Below, one piece after another: positions 11,968-20,124 of a stretch of DNA of 64,000 nucleotides; within the stretch, counting starts at the first letter, position 1; the number at the start of each line of letters is the position of its first letter. The stretch is from Candidatus Latescibacterota bacterium (GTDB lineage Bacteria > Latescibacterota > UBA2968 > UBA8231): assembly GCA_965215195.1 (NCBI GenBank), contig CBDCDC010000001.1, forward strand, positions 1,024,001 through 1,088,000, written 5' to 3'. Made by a program: the position numbers and the translations under genes. The notes under the pieces were generated by a model. The model was not told the origin of the DNA, did no database searches, and saw only the letters and a program-made list of their open reading frames with translations.

Positions 11968-13476
11968 GTGCTCGAACTGCAATCCATTAGCAAGCACTTC
12001 CCGGGCGTCCAAGCCCTAGACGACGTCTCGCTCTCGTTCCAGCCGGGCCAGATCCACGCCCTAGTCGGGGAAAACGGCGCTGGCAAGAGCACTCTGCTCA
12101 AAATTGTCACCGGAATATACCAGCCCGACGCCGGGCAGATGCGCTTCAACGGTGCGCCGCTGCGCGTCCGCAACTGTCGCGACTGCCTCAACCGCGGCAT
12201 TGGCTTGGTCCACCAGGAAATCCAGGTAGTAGCCGAGGCCAGCGTGGCCGAGAACATCATGCTCGACAAGTTAGACGCCTTCAGCCGGTGGGGTCGCCTA
12301 GACTGGCCGCGGCTCGACGACCAAGCGCGGGCTGCGATGGCGCGGGTTGGGCTGGACATGGACCCGCAAGCACCCATTGGCGATTTAAGCGCGGCGCACA
12401 AGCAGCTCGTGCAGATCGCTCGGGTGCTGTCGGCCGAGGCGCGGGTCCTGCTATTAGACGAGCCAACGTCGTCGCTTACTGAGCACGAAGCGGCCCGGCT
12501 CTTTGGCATTTTGCGCCAGTTGCAGGAGGCGGGCGTGGCCATCGTCTTTGTCTCGCACAAGTTCGACGAGGTCTATCAGATCGCCGACCAAGTCAGCGTG
12601 TTGCGGGACGGGCGACACGTGGGCACGAGGGAATTGGCCGGGCTGCCGCGCGCCGAACTGATCGAGATGATGATCGGCCGGCCGGCCGCGACAGCTTCGT
12701 TTGGCGCGCCGGCCGTGGACCGGGCGCGGGCGGTGCTCAGGGTTGAGGGGCTGTACGCGCCGGGCCGAGCGCACGGAGTGAGCTTTTCGCTCTACGCCGG
12801 CGAGATTTTGGGGTTGTACGGCTTGGTGGGGGCCGGGCGCACCGAGTTGGCGCGGCTGTTGGTTGGAGCCGAGCAGGCCGAGCGCGGTGCCGTCTATATC
12901 CACGGAGAAAAAGCGCGGATCGGCTCGGTGGCCGACAGCCTGTACAAATACCGCATGGGCTACGTAACCGAAAACCGCAAAGAAGAGGGCCTGCTGCTGG
13001 ATTCAGCCGTGCGCACCAATCTCGGCATTGCGATATGGGAGCGGATCGTCGGCAAGTTCACCCGCCGGATCGACGACCGGGCCGAGACTAAAGCCGCGCA
13101 GGCCATGGTCGCGGCGCTGGATATCCGCACTACCGGGCTAGAGCAGGAGGTAGCTCACCTCAGCGGTGGCAATCAGCAGAAAGTTAGCTTGGGCAAGTGG
13201 CTGGCGGCCGAGTGCGATATCCTGATCGTGGATGAGCCGACCGTCGGGGTGGATATCCAAGCCAAGGCACAGATCCACCGCTTGCTCTGGGACTTGGCGG
13301 CCAAAGAAGGCAAGGCCATCATTTTGATTTCGTCGGACATGCCGGAGATCATCGGCTTGGCTGGGCGGATCCTCGTCTTTAAGGAAAAGCAGATCGTCCA
13401 CGAGATCGCCGAGATCCACGAGCGGGGGTTGAGCTACGACGCGATAAGCCGCCGCATCGGCCGCCATCTGAACTGA
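11968..13476 (+). CDS. Sugar ABC transporter ATP-binding protein (RbsA/MglA-like, two ABC domains)
   Basis: GENGAGKST, LLLDEPT, GLVGAGRTE, LSGGNQQK, IVDEPTVGVD. Confidence 0.95.
   Translation: MLELQSISKHFPGVQALDDVSLSFQPGQIHALVGENGAGKSTLLKIVTGIYQPDAGQMRFNGAPLRVRNCRDCLNRGIGLVHQEIQVVAEASVAENIMLDKLDAFSRWGRLDWPRLDDQARAAMARVGLDMDPQAPIGDLSAAHKQLVQIARVLSAEARVLLLDEPTSSLTEHEAARLFGILRQLQEAGVAIVFVSHKFDEVYQIADQVSVLRDGRHVGTRELAGLPRAELIEMMIGRPAATASFGAPAVDRARAVLRVEGLYAPGRAHGVSFSLYAGEILGLYGLVGAGRTELARLLVGAEQAERGAVYIHGEKARIGSVADSLYKYRMGYVTENRKEEGLLLDSAVRTNLGIAIWERIVGKFTRRIDDRAETKAAQAMVAALDIRTTGLEQEVAHLSGGNQQKVSLGKWLAAECDILIVDEPTVGVDIQAKAQIHRLLWDLAAKEGKAIILISSDMPEIIGLAGRILVFKEKQIVHEIAEIHERGLSYDAISRRIGRHLN
13455..13476 (+). 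repeat. 22-bp direct repeat, left copy (CATCGGCCGCCATCTGAACTGA)
   Basis: Identical to 20103..20124; comprises the 3' end and stop codon of the ABC ATPase gene. Confidence 0.95.
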
Positions 13477-13610
13477 GCCAATGGGAAGTTCTCTGGGGCG
13501 AGCAAACATCCTCGAAAACCAGAGAAGCCGTCTTGACCGGCGAATCCCTTTTCTGTTTTATTCCAACCCCCAAAACAGATAGATATAGATATAGAATTGA
13601 GGATGTGATT

Positions 13611-16600
13611 ATGCCCGACGAAAAGGTACAGAGTACGGAAAACCGCCGAGATACCCAGTGGAGTCGTTTGATTGAGGACATGCATCAGTGGCCTTGGGAT
13701 GCTCCAGAATGGGAAAGCGTTCAAGTTCGAGGATTCATAGACCAAGTCCAGCTCATAGCCGAGCAGAAGTGCCAAGAACGAGAAGAGGCGGGGCGGCTCC
13801 AAATCCAGCAGGTCCTCGATCAATTGCGGGAGGAGCACGAGGCGACTCTCGTCAATTACTTTCTTTGCTCAGGCCTAGCCACGTGGGAAGCGGCTAGCTG
13901 TCCCATTGACCGAATTGACGAGCAGCTAAAGAAGACGCAAGACCTACTGACGCAACTGAATCAACGCCAAATCATCTACCAACAGATTCCACAAAATTAC
14001 TTGGAAGGCCGCAAGAAATGGGCGGAATTGGAGTCCGTAGAGCGTCGTATCCGCAGCTTGGTGGAGCAACTCGACCAAGATTTATCCGCCGCCCTCCCCG
14101 AGTCCCCTCCTTTGGATGGTGTTGCCAAAGAGGATGATCCGCCGCCCCCGCAGCCGCCTAGCCCTGTCCAAGGCCCTTTGGATGATCTCCCTGCTTCCGA
14201 GCAAGGCCCAAAAGCCGAAGAAGACGCGGACTCATCCGAAAAGGTGTTGCAACAGGAAGCCAGTCTTAAAGAAGAAGGCGAGCTAGCACCCCCACCTGCA
14301 CCTCAGTTCCCCGATGAGAAGCCCCTGTCTTTGCGCCCGGCTCAAGAGGTAGCAGTTGTGTTGCAAGAAGACCAATCGGATGAACACTGGGAATCGCTGG
14401 GATGGAGCTTGTTAGCTGAAGATGACTTGGCCGGGGCCTACTGGCTGGCTCGTTCTCTGGAAGCAGCGGGTCGCGACGTAGCGATCGCCCCGGAATTGCT
14501 CGCCGTGCTTCAGGGTTCGCGCTGGTTGGAGAACGATACCGACAGCTTGGTCTCCGATATCCGGCAGATTGTTTCGGAGTGGGAGCGCCAAGGTACTACT
14601 TCTGAGCGGCGGCTGAGTTTGGCCGCGGCTTTGCGCCCCAGCTTGGTTGCCCAGCACACCGGTTTAGTTAGCTGGCTTCCGCAAAGGGAAGAAGTCGATT
14701 CCGTGCTGGGTGCGCTAGCCGAGGCTATTCGCACTTTTGCGTCAGCGGGTCACCCCTTACGGGCCGAAGACATGCAGTCCGTAGAAGGCAGGGAAACTCA
14801 CGAGGAGCAAATTAGAGAGATAGGTGAGCAGGCTCGTCTCTTCTTGGAAAACAATCGAGCTAACAAGAAGTTGAAGGTTAAGCGAGCCACCGATGTGTTG
14901 CATCGCTTGGTGCTTCAAGAAGGGGATTTACACCTTCTTCTTACTCCGATAAGCGAAAATAAGGCCGACCAAGTCGCCCAAGTCCAGCAGCGCATGAAAG
15001 ATTTCGGGGAGCGCAGGCAGATTAAACGTTGCCTCCACCAGATTGACCAAGACCTAGCTGGGGCCAAAAAACGCAAAATCACAGGAGATCCCATCAATCA
15101 GTTGGTGCGGAGTGTCGAAGAAGCGGTCGGTCTGGCTCGACGGTGGTGTTCCCTGATAGCTCAGGAAAAGACTGAACACCAGAAGGGCGACTGGCGGGGC
15201 GAGCGCGTGGAAGCCCTACGCTGTCTAGTACAAGATGTCCTCCCCGACATCAATGACGAACTCAAGCGAATGCAGGCGCCGGAGCAACCGCAAGAAGAAG
15301 TCGCTTTGGGCCGTGTTCTACAGCGATCCATAGGCCAAGTAGCAGGTATGCTCGGCCTAGAGGAGCAAGCCGGTATTGAAGTCCCTGAAACATGGATGAA
15401 GCGCGGAAGCAGTTCACTCGAAGGGGCTTTATCGCGCCGCCTGTTGTATCTCCCCGAAATCTCTCTCGACGAAGATGGCTTGCCTGAAAAGGATCAAGAG
15501 GCTGCTATTGCTGGGTATTTGCGTCAGTCTTTGGCTGAAAAACGCTTCCTTCCTATGGCTTGGGATATGCGGATTGAAGGACAGGATTTTCGTTTTACCG
15601 ATGTATTGCGGGATGTATTGGAGAATGATGCGGATCGCCAACGGCTTGAAGAGCGAAACGACGAGGAGCTCAAAAGTGCTCAAGCGGTGCTAAAGGACAC
15701 TGTCAACAAGGTGGAAGGTGCTATTGAAAAGGGACTCGTGGACGGCCTGATTGCAGAAGAAGAACGCGCCGCTCTCAACGCTGAATTGCCGAGAGCTGAA
15801 GACGCTTTGTACTTCCCACCCTTGTTGCAGCAATTAAGTGATATTGAAAAGCGATTGAACCAAAGGCTCGAAGAACGTTTACAAGAGTTGGAGGTTCAAT
15901 GGAAGGAAATGAGGCAGGGCTTGGAGCAGAGTATCCAAGCCGACCTAACAACCGCGGCGGCATCTATTGAAAGTGCTTTTGTGCACCGCGATACCAGGGT
16001 TATAGAAGAAAGCCTAGCCCACTTGCGCGAAATTCGCGACGGTGAGCGCGAATGGCAGGACGAGTGGTTTATCCGGCCCGACAAGCCCGACATCTTCAAG
16101 AAGTTCCAAGAGGCTTGTCCGCGCATTGAAGAAACACTTAGCAGTTTGCGTAATGTCGCACAACTAGCCGAGGTGATTGAACAAGGCCAAACTTGGGCAG
16201 ACATGGAGTTTGGCGAATTGCCCCAAGAATGCCGGGAGGAGGCAGCTAAAGCTCTGCACTCTTGGCACCAGCTAAAACGCGGACAACAAAATAAAAACCA
16301 AAGGCATATCCAAGTTCTTTTGCAGTACTTGGGTTTCCGCCCGTTGGAAGGAAAACCGGCCGTGAGCGTAGGCGTGAAAAAGCGCGATCAAGATTGGCTC
16401 TACTGCCAAGTGGATGCTTCGGCCAGTGGCCTAGCACGACCCATCCCGCAGTTGGGATCGCAAGCCAGCGGCTGCTACAATGTGGTGTGTTTTTGGACAC
16501 GACCTAGGGCCGCCTCTATTGAAGCGTTTTTGCGCGAATTGGGATTGGATACTAAGACGGTCATTATTTTTTTTCTTGGACGATTGACTGATCGACAGCG

Positions 16601-20101: not shown

Positions 20102-20102
20102 T

Positions 20103-20124
20103 CATCGGCCGCCATCTGAACTGA
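20103..20124 (+). repeat. 22-bp direct repeat, right copy
   Basis: Identical to 13455..13476; followed by CT and the permease ATG. Confidence 0.95.

Follow-up and report, generated by a model that had tools for sequence, protein, structure and literature searches.

The window analyzed here is a stretch of 64,000 nucleotides (64 kb) from a Candidatus Latescibacterota bacterium (contig CBDCDC010000001.1, positions 1,024,001 to 1,088,000). It encodes a three-gene sugar ABC transporter operon that harbors, between its second and third genes, an insert of 6,648 bp (~6.6 kb) with two cargo genes, designated P1 and P2. This insert, referred to below as the cassette, is bracketed by a 22-bp direct repeat. 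The operon and the cassette comprise the following features.

10960..11964, + strand: sugar ABC transporter periplasmic binding protein, host operon gene 1 (Pfam Peripla_BP_4, E 1e-40)
11968..13476, + strand: sugar ABC transporter ATPase, AraG/RbsA-like, host operon gene 2 (Pfam ABC_tran, E 2e-56; NCBIfam match under the equivalog cut-offs)
13455..13476, + strand: left copy of the 22-bp direct repeat, the functional 3' end of the ATPase gene including its stop codon
13477..13610, + strand: non-coding left end of the cassette (alignment of 11 left junctions)
13611..18833, + strand: P1, 1740-aa STAND-type P-loop nucleoside triphosphatase (NTPase)
18830..20101, + strand: P2, 423-aa AAA+-like/HEPN partner
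20103..20124, + strand: right copy of the 22-bp direct repeat, non-coding, directly upstream of the permease start
20127..21086, + strand: sugar ABC transporter permease, AraH/RbsC-like, host operon gene 3 (Pfam BPD_transp_2, E 2e-36)

The 22-mer (CATCGGCCGCCATCTGAACTGA) is found in two exact copies, at 13455-13476 and 20103-20124, with no further copy in the window at up to 3 mismatches. Its chance expectation is 0, and none of 100 dinucleotide shuffles produced a match; repeats within repetitive genes aside, the window has no longer exact direct repeat at long range. The left copy consists of the final 22 nt of the ATPase gene (stop codon TGA at 13474-13476). The right copy begins 1 nt past the TGA of P2 (20099-20101); CT and the permease ATG (20127) come directly after it. 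Deletion of 13477-20124 in silico yields ATPase-TGA-CT-ATG-permease, and this junction is contiguous in related genomes (introduced below by their locus numbers), reading TGA-CT-ATGG in L008, TGA-TT-ATGG in L005, and TGA-CG-ATGG in L009. In L005 and L008, the native junction, TGA-(C/T)T-ATG, is intact on the left side of the inserts. The gene junctions of the operon are only 2 to 3 nt wide. At both cassette junctions, the reading frames and the contexts of the start codons are preserved, and the cargo has the same orientation as the operon. The G+C content of the insert is 52.9%, versus 62.8% for the binding protein and ATPase genes and 63.0% for the permease gene.

A Pfam scan detected no integrase, transposase, or recombinase domain in any of the 49 scanned open reading frames (ORFs) of the window, and searches of Pfam, PADLOC, and NCBIfam found no recombinase domain in either cargo gene. 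Terminal inverted repeats are absent: the best inverted match between the first and the last 100 nt of the insert scores 7, which is equalled in 41% of shuffles. Rfam has no match within 10000-24000 at E ≤1. The sole tRNA gene of the window lies at 35367-35443, which rules out a tRNA-linked island. An earlier reading of the sequence alone (the sequence-only reading) had noted the bracketing duplication, the junction restored by excising one copy along with the insert, the end of the insert 1 bp past the last stop codon, the lack of integrase, transposase, and terminal inverted repeats, and the intact host genes with co-oriented cargo. Each of these points was borne out, with the repeat being unique in the window at both positions, and that the insertion is real is virtually certain.

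The closest homologs of P1 are encoded in ten Latescibacterota genomes (L001 to L009 and L020), whose binding protein, ATPase, and permease are 88 to 97% identical to those of the window; the binding protein is 88 to 94% identical to its orthologs in L001, L002, L005, and L007 to L009, and the permease is 92 to 97% identical to its orthologs in these relatives. The relatives were fetched by homology to the cassette, so the sample is biased toward occupied sites. Seven of the ten carry the cassette in or beside the sugar operon. It is located upstream of the permease gene in L001, L002, L005, and L020, with the ATPase gene upstream in the first three; L020 is a short contig that lacks the ATPase and binding protein genes. 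In L007, L008, and L009, the cassette lies between the binding protein and ATPase genes, and in L003, L004, and L006 it is found outside the sugar operon, beside type I restriction-modification (R-M) genes. L001, an independent chromosome-level assembly, has the same gene order and the same repeat boundaries as the window, with 21/22 identity in the repeat, which argues against misassembly of the window.

The ATPase/permease junction also accommodates a different, single-gene cargo, a 395- to 406-aa NTPase similar to AAA_16, ATPase_2, and nSTAND1, which is found there in L008 (18053-19514) and L009 (17941-19181) and has no PADLOC match. In L020 (~2060-3710), this STAND-like gene is located just upstream of P1-P2, in tandem with it. 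The site, an unusual non-tRNA one according to the sequence-only reading, is not a one-off, as cassettes occupy this junction in L001, L002, L005, and L020 and the neighboring one in L007 to L009. The operon is very probably a hotspot with turnover. The favored view is that divergent cassette alleles and at least one other cargo reside in this operon and are exchanged between related genomes.

Several of these loci display further rearrangements. In L005 (10001-17672), an IS1-like transposase gene located on the opposite strand disrupts P2, and P1 is broken into two ORFs. The P1 gene of L003 (12632-13846) is interrupted by a 297-aa ORF that belongs to no family. The ATPase gene of L007 (16443-17111), directly after the cassette, lacks its first 267 codons. 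Upstream of the binding protein gene, L009 (4078-8639) encodes a DrmD-like SNF2 helicase (PADLOC E 2e-257) and a 444-aa no-family protein; with the DrmD-like gene beside it, the edge of the operon is therefore also used for defense cargo. Downstream of the permease gene, the window (21148-23447) contains an NAD-dependent epimerase gene and a patch of ~52% G+C with two small no-family ORFs. L001 lacks the epimerase region, and an M16 peptidase gene follows its permease gene within ~450 nt; the same spot in L002 and L005 holds other genes (a GNAT-domain gene in both, and a PIN gene in L005). This region thus seems to be a second variable site, adjacent to the operon.

Flanking repeats are found around most cassettes of the operon and are derived from the gene end at each junction. 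The cassettes, the sources of their repeats, and the matching positions are as follows.

Window, P1-P2: repeat from the ATPase 3' end, 22/22
L001, P1-P2, boundaries as in the window: ATPase 3' end, 21/22
L002, P1-P2: ATPase 3' end, 76/79
L005, P1-P2: permease 5' start, 45/47
L020, P1-P2: permease 5' start, 48/51
L008, P1-P2: binding protein 3' end, 31/36
L008, 395-aa cargo: permease 5' start, 21/22

No significant flanking repeat is seen in L007 and L009. The three types of repeat (ATPase 3' end, permease 5' start, and binding protein 3' end) do not overlap and share no common crossover core. The two copies of a pair are 94 to 100% identical in six of the seven cases and 86% identical in the seventh. 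The right boundary is common to the window, L001, and, in degenerate form, L020, and consists of the P2 stop codon, 1 to 2 nt, and CATCGG.

The non-functional copies of these repeats mostly resemble the gene of the genome in which they reside. In the window, this copy has 0 mismatches to its own gene end versus 2 to 4 to those of other genomes; the respective numbers are 3 versus 7 to 12 for the 79-mer of L002, 2 versus 3 to 7 for L005, and 3 versus 5 to 11 for L020. A variable codon of the ATPase C terminus reads CGC (window), CTG (L001), or CAC (L002), and the non-coding repeat of each genome has the same codon as its gene. Accordingly, the non-coding copies share lineage-specific non-synonymous changes with the ATPase C terminus. 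The repeats behave as if renewed, which calls for recent recombination there, by re-insertion or by conversion, because the cassettes of the window, L001, and L020 are at least as old as the host splits and yet the copies track the resident genome; a decaying relic does not explain this pattern. Outside the Latescibacterota, repeats of at least 12 bp at the cassette ends are absent from 25 of the 27 loci examined, and the other two show weak internal or distant matches.

The cassette alleles are more divergent than their surroundings. Synonymous divergence (dS) of the host genes from those of the window is 0.20 to 0.36. The cassette dS is 0.37 to 0.41 for L001, 0.68 to 0.74 for L002, 0.88 to 1.40 for L007 to L009, and 1.25 to 1.97 for L003, L004, and L006, and is 1.3 to 5 times the host dS. 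Phylogenies were inferred as a quick tree of P1 and FastTree nucleotide trees. The P1 tree has well-supported clades that follow the insertion site, namely, the window, L005, and L001 along with L020; L008 with the pair L007 and L009; and L003, L004, and L006, with L002 standing apart. In contrast, the host-operon tree groups the window with L008 and L009 (support 0.99). The nucleotide distances of the window from L008 and L009 are 0.32 to 0.34 in the cassette, the furthest of all, versus 0.077 to 0.107 in the host genes. Cassette dS above host dS and the incongruence of the cassette and host trees indicate that the cassette alleles did not simply co-diverge with their hosts. The sequence-only reading had named an ancestral position of the cassette, if seen in relatives, as counting against it. 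Formally, relatives do carry the cassette here; however, with a cassette dS of 1.3 to 5 times the host value and disagreeing trees, simple ancestry is insufficient.

Between the window and L008, the distance is 0.02 to 0.085 in the binding protein and permease genes and 0.045 to 0.17 across the ATPase gene. It peaks (up to 0.17) at the insertion point of L008, and the ATPase genes are as distant as those of any pair. The flanks are thus mosaic, because the window and L008 are near in the outer genes and distant across the ATPase gene.

The left end of the cassette is a conserved non-coding region. Positions 13477-13610 contain a TTGACC sequence (of which TTGAC is kept in relatives) as well as a stretch rich in T, a leader that is conserved (...ATAGAATTGAGGATGTGAT), and GAGGA as the ribosome-binding site. 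This left end is 81% identical to that of L001 over 134 nt, and a 57-nt left segment is common to the window, L001, and L002, with no other match among the fetched loci. The ~28 nt before the P1 start (13583-13610, ...ATAGACATAGAATTGAGGATGTGAT-ATG) are far more conserved across the cassette clades than the coding sequence, for which dS reaches 1.4, and the leader is found at the same position in L001, L002, L005, L008, and L020. This suggests that the 28-nt leader is a regulatory element that extends beyond the ribosome-binding site. A scan for the sigma-70 consensus calls no promoter in 13477-13610, so TTGAC with the T-rich region is no more than a candidate promoter. No terminator-like site is seen between the ATPase gene and P1 or between P2 and the permease gene; therefore, read-through is possible, and P1-P2 might be co-transcribed with the operon, expressed from their own candidate promoter, or both.

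Origin of the left end as a decayed 5' start of the permease gene was considered and rejected for the window, L001, and L002 (p 0.69 to 0.94; ~0.69 for the window). The cassette of L008 does retain a permease-5'-like segment at its left end (p ~0.0005), a remnant of a host junction, even though this cassette is now located at the binding protein/ATPase junction, and plain identity shows a permease-5' copy at the left end in L005 and L020.

P1 starts at the ATG at 13611, a choice backed by the conserved GAGGA and by alignment with relatives; an alternative TTG start is found at 13533. Its Walker A (GGRQLGKS, residues 1078-1085) and Walker B (DEAD, residues 1170-1173) motifs are invariant in 33 homologs. 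Members of the P1 family match the Pfam domains AAA_22 (31 of 31 sequences), AAA_16 (25/31), ATPase_2 (13/31), nSTAND1 (5/31), nSTAND6 (3/31), and iSTAND (3/31). The AlphaFold (AF2) model of residues 560-1740 has a predicted local distance difference test score (pLDDT) of 82; its fold matches the archaeal ATPases 2qen (TMt 0.62) and 2fna (0.56), and Avs3 is among the matches. The model also aligns over ~700 columns to double-AAA+ unfoldases, which suggests a second AAA-like domain in P1. P1 has a long helical N-terminal region, with ~1000 residues that have no Pfam match, and a small α/β domain just before the NTPase. Pfam detects no TPR or WD40 sensor repeats in it, and a PDB sequence search gave a single insignificant match (E 0.13). 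The dN/dS values of P1 and P2 against L001 (0.27 to 0.31; 0.31 for P1) indicate that both are under purifying selection.

The start codon of P2 overlaps the stop codon of P1 (ATGA). The AF2 model of P2 (pLDDT 92; predicted template modeling score 0.88) has an N-terminal AAA+-like fold with structure matches to ORC/Cdc6, RFC, RuvB, a STAND protein, and Apaf-1, and an alignment of 40 sequences shows no P-loop motif. The C-terminal domain (residues 297-416) is modeled as helical. It contains R390 and H395, invariant in the same 40 sequences, which form the Rx4H signature of HEPN domains. Pfam HEPN_Swt1 matches 8 of the 40 members, all under the gathering score (best E 2e-4), and does not match P2 of the window itself. 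P2 belongs to no Pfam, PADLOC, or NCBIfam family and has no PDB sequence match.

The P1-P2 pair is matched by generic Pfam ATPase domains only, with no PADLOC family at E ≤0.01 and no NCBIfam family for either protein. The P2 family is nevertheless large, with 1863 representatives (50%-identity clusters) at E ≤1e-3 and 1214 at E ≤1e-10, and a P2 homolog adjoins and follows a P1 homolog in 63 of the 75 fetched loci. These come from Latescibacterota, Binatia, Methylomirabilota, Entotheonella, Chloroflexota, Bacillota, Acidobacteriota, Myxococcota, Planctomycetota, Armatimonadota, and one Methanospirillum metagenome-assembled genome (MAG); the family is found in at least 10 phylum-level groups and one archaeal MAG. 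Known defense genes are frequent neighbors of the pair. Type I R-M genes lie within 4 kb of the cassette in L003, L004, and L006; other neighbors at up to 4 kb include Dsr2, DruE, PDC-S37/Hhe, a mad8/HerA-like protein, BrxC/D, BrxL, SIR2-HerA, DarT-Macro, an Eco57I methylase, DEAD+PLD, and TOTE. The 146 neighboring ORFs at 24 distant loci include one transposase gene and no tyrosine or serine recombinase gene. Among the genomes matched in the scan, only one gave two loci (L015 and L024). The P1-P2 cargo is probably a defense system. From its domains and context, it would be an undescribed STAND-plus-HEPN immune system of the abortive-infection type, in which P1 would act as the STAND NTPase sensor and switch and P2 as the RNase effector, through its HEPN domain. 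The family was not found described in the available portions of PMC3710099, PMC5704250, PMC3082526, and the STAND survey in bioRxiv 10.64898/2026.01.04.697583. P1-P2 is thus a candidate immune system of wide distribution, composed of a giant STAND NTPase and a HEPN protein, and would be suitable for experimental testing.

Two observations concern individual members of this family. In L013 (Entotheonella; 8933-19007), the cassette is flanked by the peptide deformylase gene and rsmB, and a Dsr2 gene lies upstream; this is another insertion amid housekeeping genes that has no mobility gene. For two homologous P1/P2 pairs, P0007+P0066 and P0011+P0070, the longest contigs reported are 6756 and 6839 bp, near the 6648 bp of the insert; the assemblies may break at a variable cassette, or the contigs may be free copies.

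The reading we favor, with slightly less than even confidence, is that a two-gene defense-type cassette without a mobility gene was inserted by homology-guided, duplicative host recombination and is additionally exchanged between relatives. Campbell-type insertion through the repeat is a more tentative element of this reading. The cassette would carry a short host-derived junction segment, and a Campbell-type, or "ends-in," crossover made by host enzymes through that segment would leave the 22-bp repeat as its footprint. This would involve a circular intermediate and depend on host homologous recombination; the circle junction, if the cassette were excised, would read P2 end-T-22-mer-GCCAATGG.... 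We infer the ability to excise, as we do the mechanism itself. Alleles would be exchanged between related genomes via the conserved flanks, and the duplication keeps both the ATPase C terminus whole and the native upstream context of the permease start. Homology-guided insertion combined with flank exchange would explain why this operon is targeted, why the repeats vary in length and are renewed, and why the flanks are mosaic. The sequence-only reading had offered two routes of integration. Short homology fits the comparative data; a trans-acting site-specific recombinase is not supported, as the duplicated segments differ, do not overlap, and have no common core.

Several points weigh against the favored reading. 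A length of 22 bp is at or below that usually considered efficient for RecA-type recombination. The new repeat at the binding protein/ATPase junction is a better fit to a target-duplicating illegitimate event than to pure homology, and the cassette is not known to have carried binding protein 3' sequence before its relocation. The window and L001 share boundaries and have repeat pairs that match their own genomes, for which a Campbell-type event needs near-identical donors or mismatch correction. L001 is also an exception to the resemblance of each non-coding copy to its resident gene, as its copy has 1 mismatch to its own gene and 0 to that of L005. No strain-level empty ATPase/permease site is found among the loci, which were chosen for carrying the cassette, with no search aimed at empty sites, and neither a circle nor an excision junction was seen. 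Codon bias in the G+C-rich host genes may lower the host dS, but not 3- to 5-fold; for the window and L001, the cassette dS (0.37 to 0.41) is little above the host dS (0.26 to 0.33), so co-inheritance of this pair is possible. No vehicle is known: tblastn found no P2 homolog in 72,556 plasmid or 50,697 phage records, and none of 21 whole-contig loci has the terminal overlap typical of circular molecules. Finally, the defense role of the cargo is predicted from domain content and neighborhood.

In L020, the cassette has a permease-5' copy at its left, where the other cargo adjoins it, and an ATPase-3'-like remnant at its right. This is compatible with a Campbell-type event but is no proof of one, as a later insertion of the 395-aa cargo would give the same structure. 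A transposon is excluded by the lack of a transposase and of inverted repeats and by a duplication length that varies from 22 to 79 bp. An integron gene cassette is likewise rejected: with 1 nt between the last gene and the repeat, an attC site would not fit, the ends are not inverted repeats, the promoter-like region is conserved, and no integrase was found among the scanned ORFs of the window.

The main rival of homology-guided insertion is an illegitimate, target-duplicating founding event followed by flank-mediated exchange. The cassettes would then be exchanged only in the manner of minimal mobile elements (MMEs), by double crossover in the conserved flanks, and the repeats would be passive relics, without a part in mobility, of one or a few founding illegitimate events, such as template switching or a tandem duplication with subsequent deletion. 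We consider this somewhat unlikely, even though it is consistent with the presence of different cargos between the same conserved genes, with flanks that are 88 to 97% identical in protein and ~90 to 92% in nucleotide sequence, with the mosaic divergence of the ATPase genes of otherwise close genomes, with the incongruent trees, and with the lack of mobility genes; moreover, the new repeat at the binding protein/ATPase junction needs a target duplication without prior homology. However, relic repeats should decay neutrally, whereas six of the seven pairs are 94 to 100% identical and the copies are mostly nearest to the resident gene, although the cassette lineages predate the host splits. Repeat boundaries are common to the window and L001, yet each pair has its own lineage-specific codon. 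Another alternative is an old, vertically inherited and now immobile insertion, which entered the operon once, in an ancestor of this clade, with later deletions, one relocation within the operon, fast evolution of the defense genes, and retention of the right repeat as the initiation context of the permease. Selection on a leader leaves unexplained the non-synonymous changes common to the non-coding copy and the ATPase C terminus; in addition, the cassette dS is 2 to 5 times the host dS for L002 and L007 to L009, and the genomes grouped with the window in the host tree, L008 and L009, are those separated from it most in the cassette tree. Vertical descent is therefore quite unlikely, for all that every sampled relative with both operon and cassette has the cassette in that operon, the cassette dS between the window and L001 is near the host dS, the cassette clades follow the insertion site, and the left promoter-like and leader region is common to all cassette copies.

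The remaining explanations invoke an enzyme or an error. A 22-bp repeat at a gene 3' end without an integrase in cis resembles the decayed integrative elements described in the accessible part of PMC5704250, and the identical repeat boundaries in the window and L001 would suit attL and attR sites of a recombinase that is encoded elsewhere and acts in trans. Against such a cis-mobilizable element (CIME), the repeats of the relatives are non-overlapping, range from 22 to 79 bp, and share no core; no integrase was found in the 64-kb window, and the 38 scanned Latescibacterota flank ORFs, those without a homolog in the window, include one rve-type and one IS1-type transposase gene but no recombinase of the tyrosine or serine type. 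This makes a CIME-like origin very unlikely. It is highly improbable that P1 or P2 mobilizes the cassette itself, as an unrecognized recombinase or nuclease homing into operon junctions. The idea has some appeal in that cis offers no other candidate enzyme, ~1000 residues of P1 (including the small α/β domain before the NTPase) have no assignment, and the family is spread across many phyla; but most distant loci (25 of 27) lack flanking repeats, their contexts resemble ordinary defense islands or housekeeping neighborhoods, only one genome gave two loci (L015 and L024), and STAND NTPase and HEPN domains are characteristic of immune systems, not of transposition. A chimeric join at the short repeat is barely conceivable: short exact repeats can cause false joins, but here the gene order and boundaries recur in L001, comparable structures are found in L002, L005, and L020, and both junctions preserve reading frames and start contexts.

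If the favored reading is extended, the cassettes would be recombinase-free defense units that use a short copy of a host junction as an attachment site and cycle by host recombination, with repeats renewed in each genome. That they represent such a previously unrecognized mobile unit is an unlikely proposition at present. If it were true, these "junction-mimic" cassettes would spread between related species while the operon stays functional, and operon interiors would become defense hotspots.

The definition of MMEs reportedly goes back to Saunders and Snyder (2002) and Snyder et al. (2007). Like MMEs, the site between conserved genes holds either P1-P2 (window, L001, L002, and L005) or the 395- to 406-aa STAND-like gene (L008 and L009), without mobility genes. 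Unlike MMEs, the site lies inside an operon, with junctions of 2 to 3 nt, and the cassettes are bracketed by gene-end duplications that vary in length and are near-identical within a genome; to our knowledge, MMEs have not been described with such repeats. In Neisseria, as described in the part of PMC3082526 at hand, different whole-gene MME cassettes occur between two conserved genes, and their incorporation is attributed to homologous recombination. CIMEs are decayed integrative and conjugative elements (ICEs) or integrative and mobilizable elements (IMEs) retaining attL and attR (PMC5704250, portion available). The cassettes share with them the direct repeats that include the target gene 3' end and the lack of integrase and transfer genes; they differ in the absence of a common att core among related copies and of an integrase-bearing tandem partner in the sequence at hand, and in repeats that sometimes come from a gene 5' start. 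A literature search turned up no report of operon-internal, repeat-bracketed cassettes.

Defense genes cluster in islands and hotspots, usually beside integrases or between core genes. The operon resembles such hotspots in having variable defense cargo at a fixed position, with turnover faster than that of the flanks, and other defense genes nearby (DrmD-like in L009; PDC-M38/AbiLi-like in the window); it differs in that the cargo occupies the interior of an intact three-gene metabolic operon, each junction of which can be used. Both junctions of an intact transporter operon appear to serve as a hotspot in which insertions duplicate a gene end and damage no host gene, and divergent alleles of one two-gene system replace each other among close species without a mobility gene. 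If the repeats are active substrates of recombination, immune genes could move by means of host recombination and a few dozen borrowed host bases.

P1 resembles the STAND immune receptors (Avs; Pfam nSTAND) in its STAND/ATPase_2-type P-loop NTPase, invariant Walker A and B motifs, fold match to Avs3, and defense neighborhoods. In contrast to Avs, it matches no PADLOC model, has no TPR or WD40 repeats by Pfam, and has a putative second AAA-like domain, and its likely effector is encoded separately, as a protein that has a degenerate AAA+-like domain of its own. P2 is similar to the HEPN RNase effectors of the Swt1/Abi2 group in the invariant Rx4H of its C-terminal helical domain and in its weak HEPN_Swt1 matches, but these matches are under the Pfam gathering score. 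HEPN domains do occur in combination with STAND and AAA+ ATPases (PMC3710099, in part). An inactive-looking AAA+ N-terminal domain with HEPN, encoded downstream of a 1700- to 2000-aa STAND protein, was not found described in the available part of that survey.

Elsewhere in the window, 55379-57087 (- strand) encodes an AAA_21/AAA_15 ATPase and a DUF3226/OLD-like TOPRIM protein, which match PDC-M38 A/B and AbiLi in PADLOC (E 8e-44 and 1e-15). This PDC-M38-like pair, a second small one of defense type that matches a candidate system of PADLOC, is located between a sulfatase gene and a GFO/IDH oxidoreductase gene, and the only exact repeat around it is one of 15 bp (54618 and 57962), which probably arose by chance. 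A PIN-domain gene (E 2.5e-20) at 49106-49510 (+ strand) probably encodes a VapC-type toxin. Finally, a 25-nt unit (GTTGACGC.GTTTTGCGCTCGGTCT) is found twice in tandem at 62362-62411, and a third copy, 76% identical, is located 62 kb away, at 251-275.

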